From contig CAYHAM010000006.1 of assembly GCA_964354685.1 (NCBI GenBank), positions 9,523 to 73,522 of the forward strand: a stretch of DNA of 64,000 nucleotides. Direction: 5' to 3'. Below the pieces are notes generated by a model. The model was not told the origin of the DNA and searched no databases. It saw only the letters and a list, made by a program, of their open reading frames with translations. This document shows positions 1-33,054 of this stretch, one piece after another; the first letter of the stretch is position 1, and each line of letters opens with the position of its first letter. The position numbers were made by a program, and so were the translations under genes. The DNA comes from an uncultured Methanosarcinales archaeon (GTDB lineage: Archaea; Nanobdellota; Nanobdellia; Woesearchaeales; JAGVZT01).

Positions 1-3000
1 ATAAGCCAGACCTCCACTCTCCAAGAAGAAACCACCTCCTCTTTCAACATAACTTATAATCTCATCAACTTCAGAGGTGTCATTTAATATACCATTCAAC
101 ATATGATCTCCTAAACTCCACATAACAGCATCATATTCACTCATATTACTAGCATTGGGGCTTCCATTTGAGCTTGTGTTCCACTTGATATAAGAAACAT
201 CAATTGAGGTAATTGAACTAATCGCACTAGCAATCTCTTCATCATTGTTATCACTACCATGACCAGTTGTATCATCATCAACAACGATCATAAGACTCTT
301 ATCATCATCTGCCAAGAAAACACCCTCATTGCTTTCATTTTCATAACTGCTGGTAGTAACATTCACAGAAATATAATATCCTCCTTCAGATTCATTTAAA
401 TCAACAGCAAATGTGTAATTACCACTAGCATTTGTTATTCCGCTATTCTGCCAACTTCTTCCATCAAAGCTCCACATCATTAGAGAGATATTAGCGTTGT
501 TAACTGCTTGATCTGTTGAATCCATTACATTTATGGTTATATTAACACTCTGGTTGGGTTTGACTAGTGCATACTCATAGCCATCCACCAATATATTAAC
601 ATCAATTCCTCTATATAATATGAATTCTTGTCTAAAATACCGTGTTTGGTTTAACCCATCCTGATCTGTGTAATTTACCTGCACAGTTGCATTATATGTT
701 CCTGGCGCAATATTCTTTGGTATAAACAAGCTTGCCAAAGTCACATTTGAATCAGACATATTCAACTCAGGTATCTGATAACTAATTGGAATAAACCACC
801 ATTGCTTTGTGTTGTTTTCAATGTAAAGTGACACATTGATAATATCCAAATCAAAGCCACCAATGTTTGCAACAGTAGCATTAACATAGTAAATCTCCTC
901 ATTTGCAACAACTGTTGGTAAGGTGTAGTAAGCATTAACCTCTGCAAGACCAACTCCAATTGTTACAACCTGTTGTTTTGTTATTATATTGTTTGTGTTT
1001 GGATCAGTGTAATTGACTTCAATTGTGAAGTTGTATTCACCCCTTGTTGCATTTGAGGTATTAGCCCTAAACTCTGTGTAATTTAAACCTCTGGCAAGAA
1101 CAGACACATTTCTGCTATAATAATCAACATTCCAATAGTTCCAAGCATCACCACCAGACTCATTGATTATTGCTATAATACTAATACTCACATTGAAACC
1201 TTTGCTAAACCATGTGTTATTTAATGTGGTGTTTATTATTGAGGTTTCATTCCAATCAACAGAAGGTGGTGTTGCTGTGCTGATGGGTACTATTGTTGAT
1301 ACTGTAAAGAAAGTTGTGTTGTAACTATAGGCTCCGCTTCCGTAAGTTGAGTTTATAAGCACAGTGTAATTACCAGCAGAAGCATTTGATGCAACACTTG
1401 TATTAAACCTAACACTGGTGTTAGAACTAGCTAACATAAAACTAACATTATCTTCAGGAGTCCATGAAATCAAGCTGTATGCTGAATCTAAAATTGAAAT
1501 ATTGACAGTGACATTTACATTTCTAGATTGATGTGTGTTCTCTATGGTTGTATTAATCCCTAGCAAACCCCCTGGTTCAAGCTCTGTTAGGTTTACAAAA
1601 ACAGACCTTGTGAATATATTTTTAGTTACATTAAACTCTTCATTTCTATAGAATGTTGAATCGCTCACAATTGCAGTTGCATTTATTGGGTAACCACCTA
1701 ATGATGAATTTGCAGGCACTGAAACATTGAAGTTTGTTGAATTATAACCATTAAAACCTATGTTTACGAGGGATGAGGAAGGTATAACTGTCCATGCATA
1801 ATCCCCAACAACAAGGCTAACATTAACACCTGAGGCAGGAACATTACCCACATTAGTTACATTTAGAGTAAATTCTGAATCAAGGCCAATCGGTGTTTGT
1901 TCAGGTGAGATTATATCCAACAATAATATTATATCCTCTTCTATCTCTAAAACAATCTGTCCTGTTTTGTTCTTGCTCCTACCATTTGGATCAGTATAAT
2001 AATATGTATAATTTATTGAATAATTGTCAGGTAATGCATTTAAGTACGATTCAGGTGATGTGATTGTAAATGATGTGGTATTTGAACCACTACCACCCAC
2101 ATTCAAAATTCGCTCACTTGGAGAAATTGTCCACAAAACTGTCACATCCGAACCTGTAGAGTTTAGAACAATAATGTCTGTTACGTTAAATTGTACAGCA
2201 GATGAGAATCCATTTGATATTGTTATGTTTAGCTCCGAGCTCTCATTGATACCAATACTTGTGGGAGTTAGTTGATCTGTCTTAGATATTCCCACAAGCT
2301 TCAAAGTAGTAGCACCATATCTAAGTGCACCTATATTCGTGATATTACCAGTAGCCTTAATTGTGTAAGCACCAAATGACGCACTCTCATTCACCTCATA
2401 ACCCCCGCCAGAGTTATTCCAACTCAGTACTACTGAATTGATTGGTGCAATATTAGTAACATTATTTATCTCACTCCCATTTGGGCCAAAATCTTGATCA
2501 ACCTGGCTTGAATCCAAGATATCAATCCATACGCTGACATTATAATAGTTTACATCATTTATATTAGTAACATTGACATTAATCCAATCAATGATATCAC
2601 CAGGCTCAAGCTCTGATTGAGACCTAGTCACTGTCAAACTTATATCCTCTGTAACCTCAAAATCATCAGAAACATTCAAATACTCGCGCTCATTGCCATC
2701 AAAATCAATACTCACATTGGCAGAGTAATTGCCAACAATTGTGTTGCTTGGAACACTAACTGTAAAAACAACGTCATCACTACTGTTAAAGCTGATATTT
2801 GTAGATTGATTCTCAGAAGGAGAAATATTCCAATTCATTTCAAAGCCGGTGCTATTGTAAATCTTTAGAGTGAGGTTTACATTACTCAAATTTACATTAC
2901 CTATGTTATTTATTGTGATAGTCACATCAGAATCAACTCCTTTAGGCATATCAGGAGCATTAATACTTGCCGATATATTTTTGTAAGCATTCATTGTAAT

Positions 3001-6000
3001 TGTTGAATTAGTGGTCTTCTGCTTTGAAAAACCATTTGGATCAGTGTAATTAACAATAGCTTTTATTGTATAAACCCCGCTCTCAACATCAACTGGGTTG
3101 TTTGGTGGAGTGATATCAATGATTGTTGAATTAACAGCTCTGCCGCTTACATTTAACAAAATATTTCTTGGTTCAATGGTCCATAGCCCAGTATCATTTT
3201 TGTTATAGAAATCCCAGACCTCTGTTGAAATATTAAACCCAACAAGTGATGAGAAATTATTTAGGATACTAATATTAAACCCAGCATTTTCAAATAAATC
3301 AATATCAGAAATATTTAATGAAGAGCTAGCATCAACCAGAACAATTTCAAAGCTTGTCTCATTATAAGTTTTAGCACCATAACCCCATGTTGAATTTACT
3401 TGAACAATATATGCGCCAGTATTAGAACCTGCAGCAATGTAATAACCAGCCGAGTTGTTGTTCCAGCTCACAATACTAAAGGATCCTGAAGTGATATTGC
3501 TCACATTTATCTCAGAATCCAAAGGTCCAAAACTCTGATCAACATAGCTGCTATCAAAAATATTAACACTTGAATTAACAACATAACTCTCCTCGCCAGT
3601 GTTGTTGATCGTTGCATTGATCCATTCAATAAGGTCACCTGCCTCATACTCGCTATGAGCTACTTGTATGCTTGTTATAAATATGTCTTGAGTAACATTA
3701 GAAAGAGTATAATTTGTTTTTGAGTAACTAGTGTAATTAGCAACAGCAGTTATATTGTACTCTCCTAAGATGGCATTAGCAGGAACTGTTATATTAAAAT
3801 GTGTCTGATTACTTTTATTCAATACAATATCAACAACCTGAACACTTGGAACTATTGTCCAGCTCATTAGACTGCTAGTTGAATTGTAAATCAGTAGAGA
3901 AACATTTACATCCTCAAGATAAACATTGGCTAGGTTGTTGATAGTTACATTTATCCGCTTGGTTAATGACAATGGCAGTCTGTTTGGAGCAAACACACCA
4001 ACAGAGTAGTCTATAGACTCATTCACCTCAACAAATTGTGTTGTGTGCTTTGTCTTTGTTCTTCCATTAGGATCTATATAAACAACACTTGCATTTATTG
4101 TGTAATTACCAGCTTTTGCCAAATCATTTTCAGAAGGTGATGTCACAACAAAGCTAATAGTATCATTGGTGTTTGCAGCAATTGTTTTGTTCTCAGGCAA
4201 AGCAGGATTAAAGCTCCATTCATCTGTAACATCACTACCATCCTGATAAGTAATATTTATTATTGTGACATTATAGTTAACAGCACTACTCCATACATTT
4301 GATATATTGACAATGAAATTCATTGATTCACCAGGTAGTATTAATGAGTCATTCACTGTTGAATTGATCACAACTTGCAATATCCTAAAGGTAGTATCCC
4401 TTGTGACAGAATCAAGGCTATCTGGAGTAGAGGTTGCTCTAACAGTATAATTACCCAAAACAGTATCTTGGTGAATCGTATAACCATACGAAGAATTATC
4501 AAAAACAGCTTTTGCTGTTTGCCCTGTTGCAATGCTTGTGTTTGTTATATTCTCATAATCCAATGGCCCAAAGCTCTGCTCTTGGCCAGTGCTATTGAAT
4601 ATATTTATGGTGGTTGTTATGTTATGTGTTGTCTTTGCGAGATTTTTTATGCTTACAGTTATATTACTCAAGTTGTCTCCTGGCTCAAGCTCTGTTTGAC
4701 TCAAATTAACTGAGGTGATATTTATTGCCTCTGTTACATTAACATACACAGAATCCTGGGAAGAGCTACCAGCAGTTGCACTTGTAACAACAGTTATATC
4801 AGTTACCCCAACAACATCTGCACTCACATTCCAGGTTGTGTTCTCGCTCTGACCATTGTTTAGATCGCTTATGTTATGTATGGGGTCACTATTTGGCAAA
4901 CTCAAAGCACCAGAAATAATAATCTGGGCTTGCACCCCTAATATATTACCATTAATAGCAGTTACTGTAGCGTTTGTTGTGAACAAATCCCCTTGATAAA
5001 TCTGTTGATACTCTTGTGGATCAAATACTGACACATTAGCTATTCCTGCCTTTGCTAATATAAACAAGTTCTGTGGATTTTTTATATCAATAAATGTCAA
5101 GTTTAAAGTAGAATGCTCAAACACAATCCAGCTATCATCAGGATCAAGTATCCATCCATTATTCTCATAATAGCATTCGTACCTAATCTTAATCTCATCA
5201 TTATCATTAACATAATCTGACAAATCCCCAGAAATACCATACCTATCACTCACCTCATTACCACCATCATTTGTCCTCAAGTTGCCAATATCATCCCATG
5301 AGTTGCCTGTGTTGTTCCATAACTCCACATCCTGATCGCCCTGGGGAGCACCCTCAGCAGAGTCACCATCACAACCAGCAGGACTACCATCTGATCCATC
5401 ATGACAATAAACCAACATAAATGTCATATTTGTTATCAAATACTTAGACACATCCAATGAACTAATATCAAACACAAAAACACCATAACCATGAATGGTT
5501 CCTGTATCTGTTATGTCTCCAAAATACCAATAGTCGTTGTTATTAGCCCAGGTGTTTGAATAGTTGCCTCCACTCAACTGGAAAGATCCTGTGAGCTCTG
5601 AGCCGGCATCAGCAGTCTCAGGGCCAGTCAGATTCTGATTTAGGCCTTTGAATATGTAATAATCATTAACACTTGTGTTTAAAGTGAAGTTATTCAAAAT
5701 AGATACTCCAGAACTAACACTAGTCTCATCCCAAGTTATAACCCTATCATTGGCTATCCACCTACCATCACCAACATCTATGACATTCCAATTAGATGGA
5801 ACATAAACACTTGGATCTGCTCTATCTGTTAGTGTTGTTGTGCCAATGTTTGTTGAATTAAAAATAAATAACTCTGCTTCTCCCACATCCCTTGTTCTGT
5901 TGATAATATCAAATTCATAAGTTCCACCACTTTTAACAACAGTACTGTTTGGTCCTTCTGTGCTATAATTATAATTGCTTGCAACATCAAGGAACCTTGC

Positions 6001-9000
6001 TGTTGAATTAAACCAATAAACACCAGTAGTTGATTGGTTTGAATAATATCTAACCAAGGAATAATTTATATCTTGGATAGTGCCCACATCCCAAAACACT
6101 GTATCAGCTGTCATGTTTGACACACCGCCATCCAATGGACTTACATTACCATTTGTAAACCAGCTTGTGTCAAGATACTCTGTCAAATTTGTGTTGTAAG
6201 CAGGATCATTTCCATAATTGTATATATAAAATCTAACTAGCATATTTATGTTATTACCAACAAAAGGAGGTATTTCCCTTATTATCACCAAAAGTGGTTT
6301 AGAGCCCATCTCTATGTCAGTTGTTGTGATCTTTGTTGCAGTTATTGAATTTGGATCTGTGAACTCAACTGTAGAATTGATGTTGTAAACACCTGTTGAA
6401 CTATTTACAGTCACTAAGAATTGTCTTGAACTCTGAGAAGAGCTTGCTAAAGAGCTTATTGACTGACTTGTTGGAGACACCCTCCATGTTTGTGGGATAT
6501 CAGGTGTGATAGCAAGATTAGTTATTGTGTTTGCATAGTTATTGGTTATAGTTACAGTCAGTGTTGTTGTGCCATCAGGGCTTATTGGGTTTGGGTTAAA
6601 GTCAGATGTTATTTGTAACTCAACTGTTTTTACAGTGTCATCTCCACCAGAAGTTCTGTTACCATATTGATCCTCATAAATAGAATCAACATCCAAAGTG
6701 TCAATGCCAGATGTGTTTGAAGTCGCATTAAATGTTAGATTCATTGTTGAATCCATGTACAAAGGCCCACCAATATCTTGCCACTCAATTATTCTCAAGC
6801 TATCATTATAAACCCCTCCATTTGAGATGGTGCTCTCATCAACAACATAATTTGTTGGAATTGTTACATTAACATAATGTACATCACTCATATTATCCTC
6901 TCCATTGTTTGTCAAAATTAAAGTTAGCCTTGTCACATAATCCATTGTTATCTCAGATGGAACTATACTAAAGACCATGTTTGCCCTACCTTTGGCAAGC
7001 ACCTTAATATCCCTTAGGTCATTGGCACTACTTATAGAGGGAGGGGTTCTCTCATCAGACCAATTGGCAGTTGCATTGAATGCGTTCACAAATGTCTTAT
7101 CATCAAAGCATATAGGTGATGTTAAATTATAAAAAACCATTTGTTGCTCATTTGGTTGCAAAACCAAATTTTTCCAGGAGATTTTTCTAGTTGTGGAATT
7201 GTAACTAACATTTGAGAAATTTCCTTGTGTTATTGTGCTTGTGTTAACAGTGAAGTACGGCGAAGGCCCACTACAAGAATCATCAGTTATATCTTGTGTC
7301 AAATTGATTAGCACAGCTGTATCTGTAAATGTGTTTGAGAGTGTTATATTAAATTGATAGCTTGTATCAGAGCTAACTGCAGTTAGAACATTCTGAGACA
7401 ATGTAACATTTGTAACACCAAAGCTTCTCACAAACAACTCCTGCTCATTCCAATTCCTCAAGGTATAATTCCATCTATACTTAATTTCCCTAACTGTCAA
7501 ATTGGCTATTATGTTACATGCGCATGAACCAAAACCACATTGTTGGGTAGAGGTTGCACTGAATCTCAACCTATAATCATGGTTATCCTCTGTTATCAAA
7601 TCAACCTCTCCAAATGTTCTATTCGACCAACCATTAAAATCATTATTGGTTCCACTCTTATCAGAAATATTAAACAACCTTTTCAGCTGGTCATTGTCAT
7701 TATAAACATCAACATCATCATAATAAGTAGTTAGCGTATCTCCTGCACCAATTGTTGTATCCCAGAAAACAGAGGTGTTGAAAACCTGGATATACTTTTC
7801 AATAGCATCTGAAGGGGGTGTATTGTTAAATGTGTAACTCTCAGTTGTCTCATTGGTTACACTTGCTGAACATACTGCAAAGAAAACTGCAGTATCAGAA
7901 TCACTACCATAAATCCCCCAATCAGGAGCAATATTATCAGTATAACCTTGGCTCAAAAACTCTTGATCATAAGAGCCTTTTATTGTTATTGAGTAAGCAG
8001 CACTCTCATTCACAATTGCACTGAAATTTAACAAAGCAGTTCCACCAACTGCTATGCTACTACTCAGACTCCATGTAATTGACCTATTGGTTGAGTTCCA
8101 AGTTCCGCCACCGAAGTCTGTTATATTCCAATTGTTATCTGGGAAGGTAATTCTAACAAAACTACCTGCTGCAATTGTGGATGCGCCAATGTTTTTCACA
8201 CTAATATTAAACAAAATAATTTCATTGAAGTCAAACTCATCCGGAGTAATATTGAATTGATATGCAGGGTTAGAAGTCACATTAACAACAAATGCTTGGC
8301 TCTCATTCACTGTAAACCAACTATTAGTGGAGTTCTGGTACTTACCATACCATCTAAAACTACCAATGCCAGAACTATTTGATGTAATAACGTATTTAAC
8401 TGTCTTATAATAATCGGGGTATATATCTCCCAAAACAAATATCAAATTATTGCCAACTTTAGAACCACTTCCATTATCAACAACCGTCCATCCAGGCATT
8501 GTCTCATTTATTGTGACATTGTAAGCAGTAATGTCTCCTTTGTTGTAAACAGCAAGCAAAACGGTAAAGTTCGTGTTAGCCCCAACACTGCTGGGGACAC
8601 TCCTTAAAACAGACAGGTTTATAGCTCTAGTACCAGCCCCCTCACCGACCTCAAACAACTGCTCTGAAAGCCTTGGCACAATCCATTCAACCCTGTCAAT
8701 AGCACCATTGTCATCAGAATCGAAAAACATGACATTATATTCTGGATTATATGTTATATCCCTTGAAAATCCGCCAATAACATGATACAATCTTGGATCA
8801 ACTATATCTTCAGGAATATCTGTAAATGTCTTAACATTATAATAATGTATTGAAGCATTCGAATAGACCAAAACTTGTTTAAACCTATCCAACCTATTAA
8901 TACTGCTCTCTCTTTTCTGAGGAGGCTCTAGTGCCAATCTCTCATAAGTATAACCCCCAAGCAAATTCTTTTTGACTTTTATAATCTCTACAGGTTTGTT

Positions 9001-9726
9001 AATCTCTATATCCCCTTCTATTATCAATAAGGAATCATCCACTTTGGTTGTGGTAACACCTTCTGCAAAACTTCCGATCTCCTTCACCAAGGACTCGTTT
9101 ACCAAAACACCTTCTTTTGAAGTGTCAATCAACTTCTCAACATCATAACTATTAGCTTTTACCTGTGAATTCAATAGCACATTGCCTGACACAGCTTCTC
9201 TAAACTCAGGCATAACCATACCCAAAACAAATAATAGCAAAACAAAACTAAAACCAACTAAACTAATTGTTTTGGCAACTGTATTGGACTTTGTTTTATT
9301 TTCAGCATTTTCAATTAAGTTGTGCAGATATTTACACTCATCATAAAACTCTCTTTTAAAACCTTCAGATAAGTTATTATACTCAGAACAAATCTTATTA
9401 TAAATAGAAGAGGCCAATCCAACCTCTCCTTTATCCAAATGATGATATGTTTTATCAATAAGACTATAAATATAATCTCTATGCAGTACTTCTATTAATT
9501 CCTGCTTTGTCCTGGTCCTCTTAACACTTTTGGCAAGCTCTTTATCATCAAGCGAATCCTTTATCCACTTGCTAATCGCAAAGTTGAAGTAATAATTGAA
9601 AACATCATTATCTATATTAGCCAAGAACCTCTTCAACTCTAGAAGATTGTTTATCATAACACCCTCAATCTCCAAGCCCTTCTCGGCCTTGGTGTTCTCC
9701 ATCCACCATCTTTTTTGATTTTCCAT
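1..9726 (-). CDS. Giant membrane-anchored surface glycoprotein, partial (>3242 aa, 3' end outside window). Order: cytoplasmic DUF5752-like and helical N-terminus, one TM helix, many DUF11/CARDB/MG2-like Ig repeats, jelly-roll insert, GATase-I-like extracellular domain
   Basis: Not in the ORF track because there is no stop in the window. Hand translation from ATG 9726 gives MENQKRWWMENTKAEKGLEIEGVMINNLLELKRFLANIDNDVF..., TM ISLVGFSFVLLLFVLGMVM and DSDDNGAIDRVEWIVPRLSEQLFE. The same frame reads ...IISYVERGGGFFLESGGLAY at the window start. Sampled segments were open, and a premature stop would have produced a listed ORF. Confidence 0.9.
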   Translation of the reverse strand, partial: MENQKRWWMENTKAEKGLEIEGVMINNLLELKRFLANIDNDVFNYYFNFAISKWIKDSLDDKELAKSVKRTRTKQELIEVLHRDYIYSLIDKTYHHLDKGEVGLASSIYNKICSEYNNLSEGFKREFYDECKYLHNLIENAENKTKSNTVAKTISLVGFSFVLLLFVLGMVMPEFREAVSGNVLLNSQVKANSYDVEKLIDTSKEGVLVNESLVKEIGSFAEGVTTTKVDDSLLIIEGDIEINKPVEIIKVKKNLLGGYTYERLALEPPQKRESSINRLDRFKQVLVYSNASIHYYNVKTFTDIPEDIVDPRLYHVIGGFSRDITYNPEYNVMFFDSDDNGAIDRVEWIVPRLSEQLFEVGEGAGTRAINLSVLRSVPSSVGANTNFTVLLAVYNKGDITAYNVTINETMPGWTVVDNGSGSKVGNNLIFVLGDIYPDYYKTVKYVITSNSSGIGSFRWYGKYQNSTNSWFTVNESQAFVVNVTSNPAYQFNITPDEFDFNEIILFNISVKNIGASTIAAGSFVRITFPDNNWNITDFGGGTWNSTNRSITWSLSSSIAVGGTALLNFSAIVNESAAYSITIKGSYDQEFLSQGYTDNIAPDWGIYGSDSDTAVFFAVCSASVTNETTESYTFNNTPPSDAIEKYIQVFNTSVFWDTTIGAGDTLTTYYDDVDVYNDNDQLKRLFNISDKSGTNNDFNGWSNRTFGEVDLITEDNHDYRLRFSATSTQQCGFGSCACNIIANLTVREIKYRWNYTLRNWNEQELFVRSFGVTNVTLSQNVLTAVSSDTSYQFNITLSNTFTDTAVLINLTQDITDDSCSGPSPYFTVNTSTITQGNFSNVSYNSTTRKISWKNLVLQPNEQQMVFYNLTSPICFDDKTFVNAFNATANWSDERTPPSISSANDLRDIKVLAKGRANMVFSIVPSEITMDYVTRLTLILTNNGEDNMSDVHYVNVTIPTNYVVDESTISNGGVYNDSLRIIEWQDIGGPLYMDSTMNLTFNATSNTSGIDTLDVDSIYEDQYGNRTSGGDDTVKTVELQITSDFNPNPISPDGTTTLTVTITNNYANTITNLAITPDIPQTWRVSPTSQSISSLASSSQSSRQFLVTVNSSTGVYNINSTVEFTDPNSITATKITTTDIEMGSKPLLVIIREIPPFVGNNINMLVRFYIYNYGNDPAYNTNLTEYLDTSWFTNGNVSPLDGGVSNMTADTVFWDVGTIQDINYSLVRYYSNQSTTGVYWFNSTARFLDVASNYNYSTEGPNSTVVKSGGTYEFDIINRTRDVGEAELFIFNSTNIGTTTLTDRADPSVYVPSNWNVIDVGDGRWIANDRVITWDETSVSSGVSILNNFTLNTSVNDYYIFKGLNQNLTGPETADAGSELTGSFQLSGGNYSNTWANNNDYWYFGDITDTGTIHGYGVFVFDISSLDVSKYLITNMTFMLVYCHDGSDGSPAGCDGDSAEGAPQGDQDVELWNNTGNSWDDIGNLRTNDGGNEVSDRYGISGDLSDYVNDNDEIKIRYECYYENNGWILDPDDSWIVFEHSTLNLTFIDIKNPQNLFILAKAGIANVSVFDPQEYQQIYQGDLFTTNATVTAINGNILGVQAQIIISGALSLPNSDPIHNISDLNNGQSENTTWNVSADVVGVTDITVVTSATAGSSSQDSVYVNVTEAINITSVNLSQTELEPGDNLSNITVSIKNLAKTTHNITTTINIFNSTGQEQSFGPLDYENITNTSIATGQTAKAVFDNSSYGYTIHQDTVLGNYTVRATSTPDSLDSVTRDTTFRILQVVINSTVNDSLILPGESMNFIVNISNVWSSAVNYNVTIINITYQDGSDVTDEWSFNPALPENKTIAANTNDTISFVVTSPSENDLAKAGNYTINASVVYIDPNGRTKTKHTTQFVEVNESIDYSVGVFAPNRLPLSLTKRINVTINNLANVYLEDVNVSLLIYNSTSSLMSWTIVPSVQVVDIVLNKSNQTHFNITVPANAILGEYNITAVANYTSYSKTNYTLSNVTQDIFITSIQVAHSEYEAGDLIEWINATINNTGEESYVVNSSVNIFDSSYVDQSFGPLDSEINVSNITSGSFSIVSWNNNSAGYYIAAGSNTGAYIVQVNSTWGYGAKTYNETSFEIVLVDASSSLNISDIDLFENAGFNISILNNFSSLVGFNISTEVWDFYNKNDTGLWTIEPRNILLNVSGRAVNSTIIDITPPNNPVDVESGVYTIKAIVNYTDPNGFSKQKTTNSTITMNAYKNISASINAPDMPKGVDSDVTITINNIGNVNLSNVNLTLKIYNSTGFEMNWNISPSENQSTNISFNSSDDVVFTVSVPSNTIVGNYSANVSIDFDGNEREYLNVSDDFEVTEDISLTVTRSQSELEPGDIIDWINVNVTNINDVNYYNVSVWIDILDSSQVDQDFGPNGSEINNVTNIAPINSVVLSWNNSGGGYEVNESASFGAYTIKATGNITNIGALRYGATTLKLVGISKTDQLTPTSIGINESSELNITISNGFSSAVQFNVTDIIVLNSTGSDVTVLWTISPSERILNVGGSGSNTTSFTITSPESYLNALPDNYSINYTYYYTDPNGRSKNKTGQIVLEIEEDIILLLDIISPEQTPIGLDSEFTLNVTNVGNVPASGVNVSLVVGDYAWTVIPSSSLVNIGFNGYNSTNFNVSVPANSSLGGYPINATAIVSDSTFYRNEEFNVTKNIFTRSVFVNLTELEPGGLLGINTTIENTHQSRNVNVTVNISILDSAYSLISWTPEDNVSFMLASSNTSVRFNTSVASNASAGNYTVLINSTYGSGAYSYNTTFFTVSTIVPISTATPPSVDWNETSIINTTLNNTWFSKGFNVSISIIAIINESGGDAWNYWNVDYYSRNVSVLARGLNYTEFRANTSNATRGEYNFTIEVNYTDPNTNNIITKQQVVTIGVGLAEVNAYYTLPTVVANEEIYYVNATVANIGGFDLDIINVSLYIENNTKQWWFIPISYQIPELNMSDSNVTLASLFIPKNIAPGTYNATVQVNYTDQDGLNQTRYFRQEFILYRGIDVNILVDGYEYALVKPNQSVNITINVMDSTDQAVNNANISLMMWSFDGRSWQNSGITNASGNYTFAVDLNESEGGYYISVNVTTSSYENESNEGVFLADDDKSLMIVVDDDTTGHGSDNNDEEIASAISSITSIDVSYIKWNTSSNGSPNASNMSEYDAVMWSLGDHMLNGILNDTSEVDEIISYVERGGGFFLESGGLAY

Positions 9727-9741
9727 CTTACTTTTGTACAC

Positions 9742-11625
9742 TTATGACGCAACAGCCCCAAACACAACATATCCAGAGCAATTGCCTGCAACACCCAATG
9801 GAACACCCATCTTCCAGTACACTTCCTTTGTTGAATTAACACCATCCTGAGTTTTTTTAGCAAGATTAAATGTATCAACCTGCACAGCTGAGCTTGTGAG
9901 TTGACCCATTCCAGAGTAAGATACCCCAGAGCTCACGGAATATCTCTCTCTGTTTACTGAAATATTGCCTATTGTACAATTCATGCTCAAACCATCTCCC
10001 TTAAAAACAGCATACCCGTACAATGTTATATCAAGCTCCTTGTTACCAAGGTTTGTTACAGTTATGTTAACATCCTCTGTTGAATTGTCCCCTGCATTTA
10101 AACCAGAGTAGTTTATCTCATTTGGATACAAGGAAATGCCATACAACTCATTTATTGTTGTGCTTTTATTGTTTGAACCTACTAAGCTATTTACATCAAC
10201 TGCTGTCACATTACAAACCCATGAGGCATTATTTGCATAATACCAAACATCAAAAGAGCAAGAATAGTTGGCTTCATACGTGCCAGCATTAATCTGGCTA
10301 CAACTTATATTAGTATAATGATTGTTATTGTTGTCAGCACTATCAGACCAAATAGAATTGTCGTAAAAAGTTGAATTCACATTTGTTATTACGCTGATAC
10401 CATCTTGATGGCTCACAGTTGAATTGCAATAAACCTTTACACTTGAGCCCACATTCAACACAACTGGATCATCAACAACAACCTGGGTAACATTGGGATA
10501 ATAAACTTCAACAGTCAAATTATAGGTTGAGGAATTACCATCCCAACCATTTGAATCTGTACAGTTTATGCTCCATGTGTAATTACCATTACCAAAAACC
10601 CTTGAAAAGTTTTGAGTTATGTCCTCTTGTATTATTGTTTCAGATGCTCCATTCACAGAGCCATTAATAACAAGCGAACAACTGCTCACATTAGCCACAA
10701 AATCACTCACATTGTACTCCAAAACAACTGTTCGGGATGTGTTCCACTCACTATCATCACTTGGATTCTCTAAATTTATTACTGGAGGAGTTGTGTCAAC
10801 GTACAGTATCCTTATTTCAGAAGCATTCTCATTGTTGTTTGTTGAGTTATCTGTACAATTAATACTCCAATTGTATATATTGTCACCAATGTTTGTTATT
10901 GTAAAGTTTAAGGTAATACTTTCATTGATTGTTGAGTTAGTTTGATTAACATTACCATTTAATATCAAGCTACAGTTGCTAACATTATTCAGTGCATCAC
11001 TCACACTATAATAGAATGTCACATCACTTACCAAATTCCAATTGGCATTCTCTGGACCAACAAGATTTATTGATGGCCCTTGCAAATCTGAATAATTTAC
11101 CTCCAACCAAATCGTATCTATACTCGCAACCTCATTATCAGGTAATCCAACCTGCATCCCTTTCACACCAAGGTAAATCTTAGCTAACTCTTGCCAGCCA
11201 AGACTAGTTGTGATTTGATAATAATCATTCCTCAAACTAGCGCTTTGATTAGCAACACTAGAACCATTATAGGCGTTTCCATCAAGATTCTTCCATGTTG
11301 AGCCATTGTCTAAGCTATACTTCAATGTCAGCTCATCATTACCTATGACTGGATTAGAGAAGTTTGATCTCAGGGCAAGGTAAAGGTGGTGTATAGTTCC
11401 TGAACCAGGTAAATCAACAAAGTTGAAAGTATACAAACCATTACCATTGTCTGTTTCATCCCATGCAAGCATGTTATCAGGAGCCTCATCTGCTTCCTCA
11501 GGGCTGTTTGTCCAATTATCACCATAACTTCCAGAAGAAGCATAGTATTCTGAAACAGGTGCAATCACATCCTTCAAACTAATCAAAACTGCAATCAAAA
11601 TCAATATCACTAATACTTTTTTCAT
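9742..11625 (-). CDS. Secreted protein (627 aa): signal peptide, shared ~150-aa jelly-roll-like module, two Ig-like repeats, C-terminal two-domain unit homologous to the 324-aa protein at 29927-30901
   Basis: The ORF track starts at TTG 11640. ATG 11625 (MKKVLVILILIAVLISL) follows GAGGAG and the upstream stop. C-terminal motifs WYYANNASW.CNV, LSMNCTIGNI and YWK..(V/I)P are shared with 29927-30901. Confidence 0.9.
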   Translation of the reverse strand: MKKVLVILILIAVLISLKDVIAPVSEYYASSGSYGDNWTNSPEEADEAPDNMLAWDETDNGNGLYTFNFVDLPGSGTIHHLYLALRSNFSNPVIGNDELTLKYSLDNGSTWKNLDGNAYNGSSVANQSASLRNDYYQITTSLGWQELAKIYLGVKGMQVGLPDNEVASIDTIWLEVNYSDLQGPSINLVGPENANWNLVSDVTFYYSVSDALNNVSNCSLILNGNVNQTNSTINESITLNFTITNIGDNIYNWSINCTDNSTNNNENASEIRILYVDTTPPVINLENPSDDSEWNTSRTVVLEYNVSDFVANVSSCSLVINGSVNGASETIIQEDITQNFSRVFGNGNYTWSINCTDSNGWDGNSSTYNLTVEVYYPNVTQVVVDDPVVLNVGSSVKVYCNSTVSHQDGISVITNVNSTFYDNSIWSDSADNNNNHYTNISCSQINAGTYEANYSCSFDVWYYANNASWVCNVTAVDVNSLVGSNNKSTTINELYGISLYPNEINYSGLNAGDNSTEDVNITVTNLGNKELDITLYGYAVFKGDGLSMNCTIGNISVNRERYSVSSGVSYSGMGQLTSSAVQVDTFNLAKKTQDGVNSTKEVYWKMGVPLGVAGNCSGYVVFGAVAS

Positions 11626-11626
11626 T

Positions 11627-14608
11627 CTACTTCTCCTCAAACATCCTCAACGCCATCAATTTCTTATACACCTCTCCACAACTCTTGTAAACTTTGATCT
11701 TTAAATCCTTAGGTAGTTTTGAATAAACACTCTGCAACCTTTTGTAATCATCCATTGCTCCTTTTACATCATCATTCTTTATCTTTACCTCTACCTCTTT
11801 TACCAAACCATTGAATTCAATGAGATTCTTCTTAATTACATCCTCTTCTGTTTCTTTTCTTCCTTCCAATTTCTCGCTCTTCCCTTCACTCCCTTTTTTT
11901 CCTGTTTTCCCCTCTCTCCCCACAATTGTTGTGATTGTCTCTGATGTTGTGTCCTCCCCCTTTATCTTATCCATTGCCTCTATCTCACCCTTTGCAAGTT
12001 CATGCTTTTCCTTCCAAACATCCTCATCAACCCTCTTGTGATTGAACACTCCTCTAACAAATAAGAAATAATACAATATCAAAGCAACAATCAAGATTAG
12101 TCCAAGCATAATCATTATTGCCTCTGTTATTGAAAGCCCTAACTTCTCTGAAGATAACAAAGCAAAACCTGTAATTCCAATTCTATCTTTCAGCTCATCC
12201 TCTGGAATCTTACCTTCCAAGAACATGTTATAATCAAAGAGCACTAAAGTCCTTATCCTCTTTGCATTATCCAAGCCCGCATTTGAATTAATCACATACC
12301 ATATTCCTTCCCCAAACAAATCAGAAACTCTGAATCTTATTATAGGATCATTCTTGATTATGTTGTAATCACCATTCATAAATTCAATATCACTTGCAGA
12401 AGTTACAACTGCTTTCGGTATATACTCTACAACAACAATATTGTCATAACCAGACAACTCCTCATAACCCTTTTCTATCAAAATTGTCTTACTCTCTACA
12501 CTCTCATCTAAATAAGAAACCTCAACAATTCTAATCTCCTGTCCAATACTTATGTTACTAATCAGATTAGAATTGACCTCAATATACTCATTTCTCTGCT
12601 TTTCGCTATAGATTCCAAGAGGTAATTCGTTGATTATACTGACCATCTCTGTTCTATCAAAGATTTGTGTTGACTCTGACCTCTCTTTAACAACCAAATC
12701 AGCAGGTGTTGTTGTTTCTATTTGAGTTATTCTTGAGATTATCCTTGAGATTTTATTGTCAATCTCATTATCACTCAAATCAGAGTATCTCATTACCCTG
12801 AGCTCACCCACTAATAACTCAACCTCTTGCTTGCTCTGTTGCACTACATCCACCAAACCAAGCTTTGATATTGTGTCTTTCTCTAATTGATCCTTTCCAT
12901 TTAAATCAGATAGCACAAAATCTATATCCATATTCAATTTCTCAGCATCCCTTAACACACCATCAATTTTTTTAAGTGAATACTCTGAAATAAATATCTC
13001 TCTTATACTTCCATTACCAAGCTCAACAACACTTTGTTTTGCACTCTTATTGATTGTAATGTTCACCTCTGTTGAAAGAGCTCCTTCATTACCAGCAATA
13101 TCAACCGCACTAACCTTGTAGAAGTAATCGCTAACATTCTCATTGACCTCATCTGTGTAAGAGTTACCACTTACACTAACCAAGAAGTTAGCATAATTAA
13201 CATAAGGTTCCGCAGATCTATAAATATTGAAGTGGTCAACCTCTTCACCATCATAATACCATTTTAAACTAATCCTGCTTTTAGTCAACTTCTTGACATA
13301 CAAATCTTTTGGAGCTGGAGGAACAAGTGTGTCAACAATAAACAATCTACCATCTGTTATCTCTGTACCAACATTGCCCATAATATCCCTTGCCTCAAAC
13401 TCAAATGAACCAACAAGCTCATTAGACTTTTGAGTAACAATCATATAACCGCTCCACTCCTTACCAGAACCCTCGAGCGAAACCTCTTTTCTTCCATCAG
13501 TGTTATCAAACTTATAGTATAGCTTTGGAATTGGTTGTACCCTCTCAGATGTTTTCAATTTAACATTTATTATACCCTCCTTAATCCTCTCTTTATCAAC
13601 ATCAATCTCTATTGAAGCAGTTGGAGGCAAGTCTACTTCAAATTCAACCAAAGCCTTGCCAACATTGCCTGCACTGTCTTTACATTTAACATAAAACGTA
13701 TACACACCTTGATCTAAGCTTAGCTGTGTCTTATGAGTCAAAAGACTTCCACTCAAAGCCTCTGTCATGACCTCATAACCAATATCCTGCTTGTTAAATC
13801 TACAAACCACATTCTCATCTGTTGATATATTCAACATCACATCTTTTGAACTCACCACACCTTCTGGGGAGATTATTGTTAGGATAGGAACCTTTGTATC
13901 AACCACAAACTCAACCACTTCTGAATCTTCCATAACATTACTATAATGATCAACACATCTCACATAATAACTATAAACTCCATCAACAAGATTCAAAGAA
14001 TAGCTATGATATGTCTTGTTACCATCCATCTCATAGCCCATTGAATAATAATCAGTATCCAACACACTAAATCTACAATATGCATTCTCATCTGTTGTTA
14101 TTTCCAAACTAATGTTGTTTTTATTTATTGGACCAAAGGGTTTGCTTTCAATTATCTTGGGTGGTGCTGACCTTACAAACACCTTTGTGGAGCTATCATT
14201 CAGAGAGCTCTCACTAAAGTTATCTCCACTATAAACAACATAAACCAAATAGCTTCCCGCATTACCTTCATCACATCCAACAATCCAACTTGGTTCTACA
14301 GATGAATAACTCAAAGGTGCTATACTTCCTAAACCCACATCAACACCTGAAACATAAACCAAACCACTTTGATTAGCAGCAATGGTTGCAACAACATTAT
14401 TCAACGTGTAATTCTCCTTGTTGTATATCTCTCCAGCAGTTATCTGTGTGCTGTTAGGATAATTCCCACAAATATAAACCTCAGAAGGATACATGTTATC
14501 TGTTGAAATTATACTTGCATATGAATTTAGTAATATGAGTAAAATAGCTATCAACACAACTACTCCCTTCCTCTTTTCCAAAACCTCTCTCAAAATTGTG
14601 TTGTTCAT
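11627..14608 (-). CDS. Membrane-anchored surface protein (993 aa): signal anchor, Ig-like repeats, fibronectin type III-like domain, coiled coil, C-terminal TM helix and cytoplasmic helical tail
   Basis: ORF track. FN3-like LKW...VDHFNIYRS...YFYKVSAVDIAGNEGALS; TM AIMIMLGLILIVALILYYFLFV; ATGA overlap with the upstream RHH gene. Confidence 0.85.
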   Translation of the reverse strand: MNNTILREVLEKRKGVVVLIAILLILLNSYASIISTDNMYPSEVYICGNYPNSTQITAGEIYNKENYTLNNVVATIAANQSGLVYVSGVDVGLGSIAPLSYSSVEPSWIVGCDEGNAGSYLVYVVYSGDNFSESSLNDSSTKVFVRSAPPKIIESKPFGPINKNNISLEITTDENAYCRFSVLDTDYYSMGYEMDGNKTYHSYSLNLVDGVYSYYVRCVDHYSNVMEDSEVVEFVVDTKVPILTIISPEGVVSSKDVMLNISTDENVVCRFNKQDIGYEVMTEALSGSLLTHKTQLSLDQGVYTFYVKCKDSAGNVGKALVEFEVDLPPTASIEIDVDKERIKEGIINVKLKTSERVQPIPKLYYKFDNTDGRKEVSLEGSGKEWSGYMIVTQKSNELVGSFEFEARDIMGNVGTEITDGRLFIVDTLVPPAPKDLYVKKLTKSRISLKWYYDGEEVDHFNIYRSAEPYVNYANFLVSVSGNSYTDEVNENVSDYFYKVSAVDIAGNEGALSTEVNITINKSAKQSVVELGNGSIREIFISEYSLKKIDGVLRDAEKLNMDIDFVLSDLNGKDQLEKDTISKLGLVDVVQQSKQEVELLVGELRVMRYSDLSDNEIDNKISRIISRITQIETTTPADLVVKERSESTQIFDRTEMVSIINELPLGIYSEKQRNEYIEVNSNLISNISIGQEIRIVEVSYLDESVESKTILIEKGYEELSGYDNIVVVEYIPKAVVTSASDIEFMNGDYNIIKNDPIIRFRVSDLFGEGIWYVINSNAGLDNAKRIRTLVLFDYNMFLEGKIPEDELKDRIGITGFALLSSEKLGLSITEAIMIMLGLILIVALILYYFLFVRGVFNHKRVDEDVWKEKHELAKGEIEAMDKIKGEDTTSETITTIVGREGKTGKKGSEGKSEKLEGRKETEEDVIKKNLIEFNGLVKEVEVKIKNDDVKGAMDDYKRLQSVYSKLPKDLKIKVYKSCGEVYKKLMALRMFEEK

Positions 14609-29926: not shown

Positions 29927-30901
29927 TTAAACAACAGCAGAGAATGTTACTGTTCCATTGCAGAATCCCCTGGCAGAGCCAATAGGAATTCTAAGCTTCC
30001 AATATGTTGTGTTTGTTGAATTCAAATTAGCACCATCACCATCATCAACTTTTTGCAGAATCTTGTAACTAGGTATACCTAATGGCAACTTTTCATCTGT
30101 TAAATTCCACATGGCAGTGTCAAAATCCTTAGCACTAGTAACATTATACCTAAGATTACTGATTGTTATATTGCCAATTGTACAATTCATAGACAAGTTA
30201 TCACCATCTACAACTCCATACCCGTCAAGAGATAGGTTGATGTGTACATTTCCCGTGTTTGTAACATTAACATTCTTTTCCCCTGCGTTTGTTGTTGTTT
30301 CCCCAGGCGTCATCTCCCCAAAATCAATCAAATTTGTGGAAAGATTCAAAGCAGCTAGTTGGGTTATTGTAGGAGGTGTAGCATCAATAGATGTGTTAGA
30401 AATATTACTAGAATCCCTAGCAGACACATTACAATTCCACGAGGCATTGTTAGCATAATACCAAACACTGAAATTGCATGAGATTGCTAAAGCAGATACA
30501 TTTATTGAAGAGTTTGAGCAGGTTGTGGAAAAATAATGATAGTTATTATCATTTGCTGAGCTTGAGTTATAACTTGTTGCATCATAAATAGTTGCATTTA
30601 CTGCAGTTATATCACCCAAACCATTTAAATCATTAATTGTAGCATTACATCTTAGCAATTCAGTTGTGCCTTCACTCAAACCAATACTAGCTTGATCCCC
30701 GTCATCATGCTCGTACAACACAACCTGAGTAATAGTTGGTCCAATATTAGTAACATTAACCCTTGACTCAATAGATGTATTGTCATAGTAAGCAGCATTA
30801 CTTGTATCACTTATTGATACTAATAGATAGATACCTAATATTGTAAATAAAAATATGCAAGACAATGCCAACAATTGCTCTTTTTTCATTGTAATTTTCA
30901 T
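29927..30901 (-). CDS. Secreted protein (324 aa), second subunit-like family: Ig domain plus SCPU/WxL-like terminal domain
   Basis: Signal peptide; IDFG...NVTNTGN...LSMNCTIGNI...YWKLRIP...GFCNGTVTFSAVV. Homologous to the C-terminal half of 9742-11625. Confidence 0.88.
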   Translation of the reverse strand: MKITMKKEQLLALSCIFLFTILGIYLLVSISDTSNAAYYDNTSIESRVNVTNIGPTITQVVLYEHDDGDQASIGLSEGTTELLRCNATINDLNGLGDITAVNATIYDATSYNSSSANDNNYHYFSTTCSNSSINVSALAISCNFSVWYYANNASWNCNVSARDSSNISNTSIDATPPTITQLAALNLSTNLIDFGEMTPGETTTNAGEKNVNVTNTGNVHINLSLDGYGVVDGDNLSMNCTIGNITISNLRYNVTSAKDFDTAMWNLTDEKLPLGIPSYKILQKVDDGDGANLNSTNTTYWKLRIPIGSARGFCNGTVTFSAVV

Positions 30902-30922: not shown

Positions 30923-31702
30923 TTACGATAACTCAACATAAAAGTAATAATCTGTTTGTAATGTAGCAGGGCTGCCATTCTCTGCTATCAGCATCTGAAA
31001 ATCATAGGTTGTATTTGCAGCATCATTTTTATAACCATCAATATTGTTTTCTATCTTAGTTACATATATTAAATTAGCACTCCCATCATAAAGCAAAACC
31101 TCGTCAAACCATTCTGTGGAGCTTTGGGCACTATCATTAATCCATGTGTTGATTGAATAATTACAGGTGTCAGTAATTATATGACTACTACCTGCCCAAA
31201 AATCCCAATGGTCATTTCCATCATCATCAAAAGTGTTATTCATTGGATCATCAGGAGTGTTTGTTGTGTTGTGGTGCATATCTGCCATTTCATCTGCAAT
31301 ATGTGTTGAGTTTGCACACACCACATTATCCCAACTAATGGTACTTGAAGTTCTAGTAGCATAAACCTCTCCACCAACTATTGACACACTCCACTCATAT
31401 ATTGAATAATTGCTTGCATCCTCCAAAACATATGCTCCAGTAACATTTCCAACATAAGCCTTGTAATGAGGGTTTGCCTGCCTTGCTGTGAGCCTCAATG
31501 TAATAATCCTACCTCCTTTACTATCATTGTTATCTTCCACTGTTGGAACACCTGATGCTGCTGATGTTTCATTGCTAACCCACTCCAAACTTGGTCCTGT
31601 CGGAACAGCAGCAAATACACTCTTTATCAAAGTCAATGTTACTAATACAGCAATGACTAATACCAATACCAATTCCACTTTTTCTCTACTTGTCCTTGTC
31701 AA
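30923..31702 (-). CDS. Secreted ~250-aa subunit-like protein, subtype A (A3)
   Basis: TTG start 6 nt after GGTGA; AVPTGP, YKAYVGNVTG, terminal YYFYVELS; 11 N-x-S/T sequons counted. Confidence 0.92.
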   Translation of the reverse strand: MTRTSREKVELVLVLVIAVLVTLTLIKSVFAAVPTGPSLEWVSNETSAASGVPTVEDNNDSKGGRIITLRLTARQANPHYKAYVGNVTGAYVLEDASNYSIYEWSVSIVGGEVYATRTSSTISWDNVVCANSTHIADEMADMHHNTTNTPDDPMNNTFDDDGNDHWDFWAGSSHIITDTCNYSINTWINDSAQSSTEWFDEVLLYDGSANLIYVTKIENNIDGYKNDAANTTYDFQMLIAENGSPATLQTDYYFYVELS

Positions 31703-31741: not shown

Positions 31742-32500
31742 TTACTCAATTTCAACCCAAAAGTAATAATCTACAGGGCTTGTGTCACCATCATGTCCAT
31801 CTTCTCCAACTAGCATCTGGAAGTCATAGTTGTCTGTGCCAGTCTTGAACCCATCAGAGCCACCTTGATGGATAAATGCCATGTAAATCATCCCATTGTC
31901 AGAGCTGCTCCAAAGCAAAGTTTCATTAAAATTCCTGCTCGCATCTACCGCATCATTCACATAAGTGCTCACAACGAAATCGCACTCATCAGCTGCAAAT
32001 GTGTTGTTTCCAACACTAAAGAAAGGATGAGTTGTAAGGTTGAATGTCTCATTGATACCATCTACATCTTGCCCTAAGTTGTTGAAGTTGAGTCTAGTTT
32101 CTTCTGTTTGAATCTCTGTTATATTTGTACAATGCACATTGGGATCAGTCCAATTCACACTATTGTTCCTAGTTGCGTAAATCTCACCCTCAGGATCAGC
32201 CAAGTCCCATGAATACATTGTGTTGTTGAGTGCATCATCTAATGTTATAGTACCACTAATATTACCATAGTAACCCTGCCAACCCCTGGTTACCACAGTG
32301 GCACTCATGTTTAGCTCACTCACATTACCAGCCTCTGCCTGTATATACCTTACACCAGCATAGGGTCTTCTAGATACATTTATTATAGTAAATTCCTGGT
32401 TTGGAGGCGTAGGCACGTTTTGATATCCTGCCAAAACAGAAACTGCTATTAAAGCAAATACCAATATTATTATTGTCCAGTTTGCAATTGTCTTCTTCAT
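31742..32500 (-). CDS. Secreted ~250-aa subunit-like protein, subtype B (B3)
   Basis: GAGGTGATC ribosome-binding site; GWQGYYGNISG, EDGHDGD, terminal YYFWVEIE. Confidence 0.93.
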   Translation of the reverse strand: MKKTIANWTIIILVFALIAVSVLAGYQNVPTPPNQEFTIINVSRRPYAGVRYIQAEAGNVSELNMSATVVTRGWQGYYGNISGTITLDDALNNTMYSWDLADPEGEIYATRNNSVNWTDPNVHCTNITEIQTEETRLNFNNLGQDVDGINETFNLTTHPFFSVGNNTFAADECDFVVSTYVNDAVDASRNFNETLLWSSSDNGMIYMAFIHQGGSDGFKTGTDNYDFQMLVGEDGHDGDTSPVDYYFWVEIE

Positions 32501-32572
32501 TGAAGATCACCTCTTTTTAAAGTATAAAAATTCGGATTTTTTCCTTGATTAAAAGGAACATGATGTTTAGAA

Positions 32573-32797
32573 TCAGGATTTGTATGCAGCATTTTTCACA
32601 TTACCTCTTTCTTTTACAATAGACATTTTCTCTATATTCTTCTCATTGATGATAATAGTACCAAGATCACCATCAATCTTTACAAACCCATTTTCAATTG
32701 CCTCTAGCCTTCCGCGAGCAATCTTAAACTGAGAACCATCTCTGTAGGGAGCTTTGACTTCCTCACCTAAGAATTCCTCAAAAATGCTTTTTGGCAT
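32573..32797 (-). CDS. Small Sm/LSm-fold-like protein (74 aa)
   Basis: Helix then beta pattern FLGEEVKAPYRDG..IARGRLEAIENGFVKI...TIIINEKNIEKM resembles the Sm1/Sm2 motifs. Confidence 0.6.
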   Translation of the reverse strand: MPKSIFEEFLGEEVKAPYRDGSQFKIARGRLEAIENGFVKIDGDLGTIIINEKNIEKMSIVKERGNVKNAAYKS

Positions 32798-32853
32798 TTG
32801 CGTTCACCATAACCTTGCTTTTTCTTTGGCGTTGTAATAAACTATTATACAAA

Positions 32854-32919
32854 TATAATATTTACTATTTCGGTATACAAAAACATATACTCATATATAA
32901 ATATTTCGGTTTAGTATAT
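32854..32919 (-). promoter_or_regulatory. 66-bp promoter block, copy 1 (identical to 34165-34230)
   Basis: Minus strand ATATACTAAACCGAAATATTTATATATGAGTATATGTTTTTGTATACCGAAATAGTAAATATTATA contains BRE+TATA and ACCGAAATA twice. Confidence 0.85.
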
Positions 32920-33054
32920 TAAAATAGGATTTTAAATAGGCAGATATTGTGATTAAGTAATTAATTAATTTAATAAGTAAATTAATATCTTGATTATTGA
33001 TATAACTAACTTTAACACAATAATATAAGTATTCAAAAGAGTAAAAACTGCTCC

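Follow-up and report, generated by a model that had tools for sequence, protein, structure and literature searches.

A two-domain module encoded as a small free-standing protein and as the C-terminal tail of larger proteins in Woesearchaeales-type archaea

The 64,000-nucleotide window analysed here (G000:C6:9523-73522, G000 being the assembly of this genome) encodes a module of about 270 residues, which we call C, in two forms: as a free-standing protein of 324 aa and as the C-terminal part of a 632-aa open reading frame (ORF). C, as modelled, is a lineage-specific module consisting of a self-contained pair of beta-sandwich domains. We regard as evenly balanced the reading that C serves as the attachment or assembly module of a multi-protein surface system in DPANN archaea of the Woesearchaeales type. 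Payload-C proteins (C-tailed proteins, written xC in gene orders) and free C would then join the structure of the YYFYVEL subunit family (A and B, together A/B), a 404-aa neighbour protein called P4 would be the anchor or chaperone, and a short N-terminal extension of free C would dock.

Free and fused copies of the C module

The 632-aa ORF lies on the minus strand at 9742-11640 and gives a 627-aa protein when counted from an ATG at codon 6. In a BLASTP comparison with the 324-aa ORF, its residues 382-630 aligned with residues 55-323 at 39% identity over 269 columns (E 6e-49). The first-pass annotation of this DNA had claimed that the C-terminus of the 627-aa protein resembles the 324-aa protein, and this similarity was confirmed: the motifs that it quoted (CNSTV/CNATI, DNN..HY, WYYANNASW.CNV, LSMNCTIGNI and YWK..P.G..G.C.G.V.F.AV) are all inside the alignment, and the span that it gave, 9742-10510, covers the C module. 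It had also correctly placed the 324-aa gene directly behind a B-B-A series, where a 21-nt spacer follows A. A whole-assembly search revealed a third full copy in the last ~270 residues of a 4152-aa protein, hereafter giant 1; its gene runs from window position 9741 to C6:6805, beyond the window edge, and the module itself is found at G000:C6:6808-7614, at a distance of 1.9-2.7 kb from the window. The fourth copy is divergent (E 8e-10) and forms the C-terminus of a 445-aa protein on contig C8. Recent gene conversion was considered as the source of the similarity between C copies and rejected, the copies being only 37-40% identical and located in different clades.

An alignment of 46 sequences of the C family was used for an AlphaFold2 (AF2) model. 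In the model of free C (mean predicted local distance difference test score, pLDDT, 91.4), a signal-peptide helix is followed by two beta-sandwiches of eight strands each, as assigned by DSSP. Five cysteines are invariant or nearly so in the family, and free C carries 7.1 N-x-S/T sequons per 100 residues, versus 0.93 for the ORFs of this genome. No match to C was found in Pfam, NCBIfam or the PDB sequences, including when the 46 aligned members were scanned individually at E<=1, and the family is not described in the literature that we searched. The first-pass annotation had pointed to an SCPU/Csu/WxL/TasA-type fold, and this was not borne out. A Foldseek search of the PDB with the two-domain model, a query that probably blurs per-domain matches, returned just generic tandem immunoglobulin-like (Ig-like) matches with template modelling (TM) scores of 0.17-0.27 (DUF4466, SdrG/SdrD/FnBPA, RbmA, integrins and Fabs), and similar generic matches were obtained against BFVD. 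No CsuA/B, CS1, TasA, AbpA, WxL-type or pilin structure was present among the top 50 PDB matches, and such a fold is therefore unsupported. The sole resemblance to a WxL domain is a W-[KR]-L-x-x-P motif near the C-terminus of C.

A word-index search retrieved 71 C homologues, most of them unnamed; those with a name are Woesearchaeota or Nanoarchaeia entries, each called 'hypothetical protein'. By an exhaustive profile search, 3483 cluster representatives were retrieved at E<=0.001, of which 819 matched at E<=1e-30, the threshold used here for a strong C hit (a stricter set is defined by E<=1e-60). Two genome samples were used, one of 301 genomes of the window's order and one of 201 genomes of the phylum. 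C was matched in 95 genomes of the order, 67 of them at E<=1e-30, and all C-positive genomes of the phylum sample (27/27) fall in the window's order. The search of public sequencing runs gave one soil DNA run, with 7% of words, and no RNA run.

Fused proteins were collected from the word-index and profile searches and completed with the three copies of this genome. In all 64 of them, ranging in length from 364 to 5014 aa, the module ends up within 7 residues of the C-terminus, and the same placement was observed in 20/20 fused loci fetched from different genomes. Among ~600-aa relatives of the 632-aa protein, the module is the best conserved part (34-62% identity versus 18-55% for the payload), while the similarity of the N-terminal domain falls to noise level and this domain is often a different, non-homologous one. 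Two proposals of the first-pass annotation are supported by these data: the logic of a stand-alone copy plus a terminal domain, free C and C-tailed proteins both being found, and that of a cargo-bearing version, the module being always C-terminal and conserved under variable payloads.

Judged by its sequence, the 632-aa protein is a mosaic. Its N-terminal domain (residues 30-184) is 75% identical to residues 963-1117 of a 5598-aa giant and 71% identical to residues 1447-1599 of a 3202-aa giant, and its Ig repeats together with the module are 37% identical to the end of giant 1. Both payload identities far exceed the 27-54% observed between the Ig repeats of these proteins; the two giants are A/B-tailed. 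These values suggest that the domain was recently transferred, or homogenised by gene conversion, between cargo proteins belonging to both tail families.

In a maximum-likelihood tree of 176 modules, the free or fused state switches at least 7 times on well-supported branches and 14 times by parsimony; it is also far more clustered than expected by chance. The window's two fused copies belong to an all-fused group and its free copy to an all-free clade. Because the state has switched at least 7 times, the module behaves, as far as this phylogeny can tell, as a cassette repeatedly placed under different payloads.

Free C has a further feature: an extension of ~12 residues separates the invariant Pro55 from the point where the signal peptide is predicted to be cleaved. 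Its consensus is N-x-[ST]-V-x-[ST]-x-[VL]-N-[VI]-T-N. Positions 44, 46, 48, 50 and 52 are conserved, with an entropy of 0.8-1.6 bits compared to a mean of 3.0 in the signal peptide (123 free members), and the intervening positions are polar, with two conserved sequons. In the sequences, such a pattern is the signature of a putative beta-strand with one face buried and the other exposed and glycosylated. No strand is assigned to the extension in the AF2 monomer model (pLDDT 56-79), and in fused proteins the equivalent residues correspond to the last strand of the preceding Ig domain. The extension is the best sequence-level hint of strand docking, and it stays a hint because both C domains look complete by strand count.

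Association with the A/B subunits and with P4

The first-pass annotation had coupled C to the YYFYVEL family, and the two were indeed found together. A/B is present in 119/301 genomes of the order and in 58 of the 67 strong-C genomes (Fisher p 2e-19), or 54/57 when the stricter C set is used (p 2e-22). Conversely, C is absent from 52 to 65 of the 119 A/B-positive genomes, according to the C threshold. C is thus rarely found without A/B while A/B is often found without C, and from this pattern of occurrence C therefore looks like an accessory of an A/B-based system.

The association extends to gene order. For free C, 30 loci from as many genomes were compared, and 23 of them have a same-strand A/B gene immediately upstream; the order is B-A-C in about 20, as typed with A and B profiles, and a few loci read B-B-C-A. 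The B-A-C order recurs across many sampled GTDB families of the order. In this genome two B genes, A and then C follow each other on the minus strand (Table 1), and, ahead of the ATG, the 21 nt between A and C include a ribosome-binding-like site, GAGAAGGT. In G078 (L058) and G099 (L060) two B-A-C (or B-B-C-A) units stand in tandem, with small helix-turn-helix-sized ORFs of ~140-220 aa between the units; by analogy, these tandem units resemble cassette-like variant copies, each under its own regulator.

Conservation of gene order bears on the possibility that the module is a stable terminal Ig-like cap without any partner, spread by duplication and domain shuffling, its synteny reflecting shared regulation of surface genes. 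Ig-like domains are abundantly shuffled in these genomes, as such an origin would have it. However, the order is kept across families, the module is strictly C-terminal (64/64) and more conserved than the payloads that precede it, and the extension is conserved on one face. We consider this explanation very improbable.

The A/B family itself offers a parallel case. The 3202-aa giant ends in a clear A/B-type domain, and the tail of the 5598-aa giant aligns as A/B at 23% identity and is not among the profile matches listed, so that it is a weaker case than the 3202-aa tail. On this basis, the A/B and C families would follow, in their sequences, one rule of free copies plus tails. Beside the C unit, a gene of a family 4 glycosyltransferase (GT4; Glycos_transf_1, E 1e-41; window 28183-29349, plus strand) converges on the 3' end of free C; it is a possible dedicated glycosylation enzyme for the sequon-rich proteins encoded nearby.

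P4 is the second recurrent neighbour. The protein has a signal peptide, three beta-sandwich domains, a transmembrane helix at the C-terminus, and a basic tail (AF2 pLDDT 88.3). Its homologues adjoin payload-C genes in 13/20 loci and directly follow free C in 5/30, and the fullest clusters read B-A-C-xC-P4, e.g. in G085 and G164. The cluster is split in this genome, with B-B-A-C at 29.9-33.8 kb and the rest at the left end, where ribbon-helix-helix genes and those of a 993-aa protein, the 632-aa protein, giant 1 and P4 overlap or abut. Homologues of the 993-aa membrane protein are encoded in or beside the C loci of at least 7 other genomes, and it may be another conserved component of the system. 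In a domain scan, the neighbouring proteins were found to carry just Ig-like, helix-turn-helix, GT4 and zinc-ribbon domains.

Those relatives of P4 that have a name are called 'hypothetical protein', except for one with a FlaG-type label of the Joint Genome Institute (JGI). Searches of Pfam, NCBIfam and PDB sequences with the single protein, and scanning of all 16 members, returned nothing specific; the Pfam matches were to CARDB (weak, in 10/16 members, the commonest), Wzt_C and DUF7507. A WxLIP_HBD match in 1/16 members (E 0.061) was taken as chance. Its best Foldseek matches are ASH/Hydin-type Ig arrays; integrins, an in-situ pentameric S-layer (surface-layer) protein and RbmA were also matched. 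P4 is sequon-poor, with a median of 0.6 per 100 aa versus 6.5 for C and 4.8 for A/B. Three further P4 paralogues were observed in this genome, at G000:C8:46045-48520 and G000:C5:12298-19222, each directly downstream of a secreted protein (445 aa, 587 aa or 241 aa); the 445-aa protein is lamin-tail-domain-like and has the divergent C tail, and the 587-aa one is cysteine-rich. The proteins upstream of the two contig C5 paralogues were tried as C-tailed candidates and rejected by hhalign, with probabilities of 8% and 0.5%. Proteins of the P4 type may serve several surface systems as a general class of partner.

The repeated units and the P4 fold matches bear on another explanation, in which A, B and C are parts of a two-dimensional surface coat (an S-layer-like lattice) or of a matrix, the tails of the large proteins inserting into the lattice. 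There are many separately encoded A/B copies, glycosylation is presumably heavy given the sequon counts, and the B-A-C triad repeats up to twice per locus, which suggests a defined stoichiometry rather than a major/minor pilin ratio; the in-situ pentameric S-layer protein among the matches of P4 points the same way. Yet the family is found in just about a third of the order's genomes and A/B also occurs without C, which would be odd for an essential coat, and no lattice-forming homologue was detected. A coat of this kind seems to us distinctly improbable.

At the start of the contig, outside the window and two genes beyond P4, lies a truncated minus-strand ORF (G000:C6:1-1138). It combines a signal/anchor region, an extracellular beta-sandwich, a transmembrane helix and, last, a P-loop ATPase domain of HerA/FtsK type (DUF87, E 1e-10). 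It is unusual for a surface-protein cluster to have as neighbour a membrane ATPase one of whose domains faces outward.

Table 1. Positions of the C module, its subunit partners and neighbouring features (window coordinates unless a contig is given)
Feature	Position	Strand	Basis or remark
C module (two beta-sandwich domains), C-terminus of 632-aa protein	9742..10510	-	profile E 2e-77, positions 36-307 of 308; ends 2 residues before stop
Two Ig-like spacer repeats, 632-aa protein residues 185-381	10498..11088	-	weak Big_7 / DUF4625 matches; 31-41% identical to giants' repeats
N-terminal payload domain, 632-aa protein residues 30-184	11089..11553	-	identity to giants' internal domains
Free-standing C protein, 324 aa: signal peptide, N-terminal extension, domain 1 (~55-175), domain 2 (~176-324)	29927..30901	-	AF2 model
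Residues 37-54 of free C, the conserved N-terminal extension; candidate strand for docking or donation	30740..30793	-	conservation
A-type YYFYVEL subunit gene directly upstream of C	30923..31702	-	21-nt spacer
Two B-type YYFYVEL subunit genes (31742-32500 and 33055-33813), head of B-B-A-C unit	31742..33813	-	
Part of 4152-aa giant 1 in the window	1..9741	-	cytoplasmic N-terminal region, one transmembrane helix, long ectodomain
993-aa membrane protein: Ig-like ectodomain, C-terminal transmembrane helix, cytoplasmic tail	11627..14608	-	overlaps 632-aa gene start by 14 nt
A/B-type terminal domain of 3202-aa giant (parallel case for A/B family)	34341..35141	-	profile E 2e-71
A/B-type terminal domain of 5598-aa giant	43946..44746	-	23% identical to first A subunit; ends TFYVEIK
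P4 gene, 404 aa, directly downstream of giant 1	G000:C6:5540-6754	-	outside window, ~2.8-4.0 kb before its start

Possible roles of the module

In the attachment or assembly reading, which we hold at even weight, the module would mediate protein-protein docking, so that A and B would share one surface structure with free C and the payload-C proteins. The minor subunit, adaptor or terminator put forward in the first-pass annotation is, like the fibre itself, a hypothesis within this reading. P4 would be the membrane-anchored partner and would either anchor these proteins or chaperone their assembly. Both the 632-aa protein and giant 1 would be adhesin-like cargo carriers, the first small and the second very long. 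The extension of free C, for which the payload versions have no free end, might dock as a strand into a neighbouring subunit; free C would thus be a connecting or minor subunit, and the payload-C proteins acceptor-only ends.

Several observations weigh against this reading. By strand count, the two modelled C domains, each with eight assigned strands and high pLDDT, do not look like the incomplete Ig fold of donor-strand systems. Comparison by hhalign of C with A/B and of C with P4 revealed no relation, an N-x-G-N-V turn being all that was shared. C is missing from about half of the genomes that have A/B. P4 is not C-specific, its paralogues being found also beside proteins without detectable C relation. 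Neither for C nor for P4 do the top 50 Foldseek matches contain a pilin, TasA or a chaperone-usher chaperone, and the PapD/Caf1M type was looked for with P4 in particular. Finally, giant 1 is itself membrane-anchored at its N-terminus, in a type II topology, and is an ill fit to a simple free tip adhesin.

This topology would place the C module of giant 1 furthest from the cell and thus leads to the main alternative, in which the module is a distal ligand- or host-binding head, as in the tandem Ig-like region of staphylococcal MSCRAMMs (microbial surface components recognizing adhesive matrix molecules), free C being a binder that is secreted or held by P4. The module is extracellular, glycosylated and cysteine-stabilised according to its sequence features, and its Foldseek matches include the ligand-binding regions of SdrG, SdrD and FnBPA as well as the matrix protein RbmA. 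These fold matches are nevertheless weak and generic, with TM scores of about 0.2. Moreover, binding heads are usually the variable part of a protein, whereas here the module is invariant and the N-terminal domains vary; the fixed B-A-C order and the dependence on A/B would be left unexplained, and the parallel A/B family has the same pattern of free copies and tails. We judge a distal head unlikely.

The attachment or assembly reading can be carried one step further. Woesearchaeales might build a surface filament of their own by chaperone-guided strand exchange, which would be a convergent counterpart or a very distant relative of the WxL/Elr and Pam pili described below; we put this forward tentatively and hold it to be rather doubtful. 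P4, anchored in the membrane, would in this case act as chaperone or nucleator, conserved N-terminal strands would link the subunits B, A and C, and the adhesin ends, able only to accept a strand, would be formed by the C-tailed and A/B-tailed proteins, giants of 3000 to 5600 aa included. No report of a membrane-chaperone pilus pathway in Archaea was found in the literature that we searched. If strand-exchange assembly were true, the membrane-anchored-chaperone pilus pathway of Bacillota and of bacteria of the candidate phyla radiation (CPR) would extend to Archaea, and to lineages with a presumed life on the surface of other cells.

DPANN archaea presumably rely on being physically attached to hosts. 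To our knowledge, the molecules responsible are almost unknown and the giant surface proteins of these organisms are mostly unannotated. The present analysis defines a second invariant tail module, with a conserved operon (B-A-C, payload-C, P4), restricted to one order in the samples used. The C module gives a handle for annotating thousands of hypothetical proteins, and the C tail a rule for recognising cargo-bearing surface proteins in these genomes. In addition, interactions could be assayed in vitro, without cultivation, between a few soluble domains, namely C, the C tail, A, B and the P4 ectodomain.

Comparison with known systems

The WxL system of Bacillota comprises a small and a large WxL protein, the large one carrying its WxL domain at the C-terminus behind a variable payload, together with a membrane-anchored DUF916/DUF3324 protein (PMC10599100, PMC1534035); the WxL/Elr pilus system is reported as confined to Bacillota (preprint 10.64898/2026.10.17.759780). 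The likeness to our system concerns a small module-only protein with an amphipathic N-terminal strand (here in architecture only), large proteins with a variable N-terminal payload and the module most C-terminal, a ~400-aa Ig-like protein with a C-terminal membrane helix encoded next door (here P4), and several loci or paralogues per genome. There is, however, no sequence relation, the 46 C members and the 632-aa protein giving no WxL (PF13731) match at E<=1. An adjacent DUF916/DUF3324 (WxLIP) chaperone is absent, and the top 50 fold matches of P4 lack the CsuC, Caf1M and CfaA types. C has two sandwiches that look complete by strand count, against a single incomplete one, and P4 has three domains. 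The present system further differs in having no sortase or LPxTG anchor, in its second subunit family (A/B) and in its archaeal host.

Chaperone-usher systems (two-domain tip adhesins FimH and PapG; archaic Csu/SCPU pilins) likewise use one domain twice, as a free subunit and as the C-terminal half of a protein that binds a receptor, and their free subunits carry an N-terminal extension. In contrast, C gave no pilin fold match in the top 50 and no Fimbrial or SCPU match, there is no PapD-type chaperone in the top 50 matches, and neither an usher nor a PapD-like chaperone was detected among the domains of the neighbouring proteins. Archaea, as far as we know, are as a rule without an outer membrane.

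The Pam pilus of CPR bacteria is made of two-domain PamA/B pilins with a linker donor strand, membrane-anchored PapD-like PamC/D and the RbmA-like PamR, a tandem beta-sandwich terminator whose extra N-terminal strand is proposed to insert into the pilin (PMC13278184). Compared by that paper's description only, the two systems both belong to ultra-small episymbionts and share assembly factors (here P4 as candidate) with C-terminal transmembrane anchors and the lack of a trans-envelope machine; in addition, both C and P4 have RbmA among their fold matches. They differ in that free C has no transmembrane helix and in that Pam is bacterial, not archaeal.

Chaperone-free donor-strand filaments of archaea include Sulfolobus threads, the AbpA/TasA-like bundling pili of Pyrobaculum and Pyrodictium cannulae (PMC9715654, PMC12518558). 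From the accessible portions of these reports, they resemble the present system in being archaeal and in having glycosylated beta-sandwich subunits, which polymerise via an N-terminal strand; the same portions describe no cargo-bearing subunit-tailed versions and no dedicated membrane-anchored partner. No sequence or fold match was found: for the Peptidase_M73/TasA-type jelly-roll, C gave no Pfam match and neither TasA nor AbpA in the top 50 of Foldseek. As for MSCRAMMs (SdrG N2-N3) and RbmA of V. cholerae, both are tandem Ig-like or FnIII-like sandwiches and are among the best Foldseek matches of C, at a TM score of about 0.2 and 7-14% identity; their position in the protein and their anchoring differ. 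SdrG-type MSCRAMMs have DEv-IgG tandem domains with a latch strand and an LPxTG wall anchor; the match of C to them (E about 1e-4, TM score about 0.21) comes with neither an LPxTG motif nor a sequence relation.

Membership of C in the WxL, Pam, chaperone-usher, TasA or MSCRAMM families is thus not supported, the likeness to WxL and Pam lying in the parts list only and, for Pam, by description only. The family has no match in Pfam, NCBIfam or solved structures; the system would belong with the modular surface systems that have a shared C-terminal attachment module. By architecture, its closest analogues appear to be the WxL/Elr pili of Bacillota (E. faecalis elrABCDE) and the tip adhesins of chaperone-usher systems.

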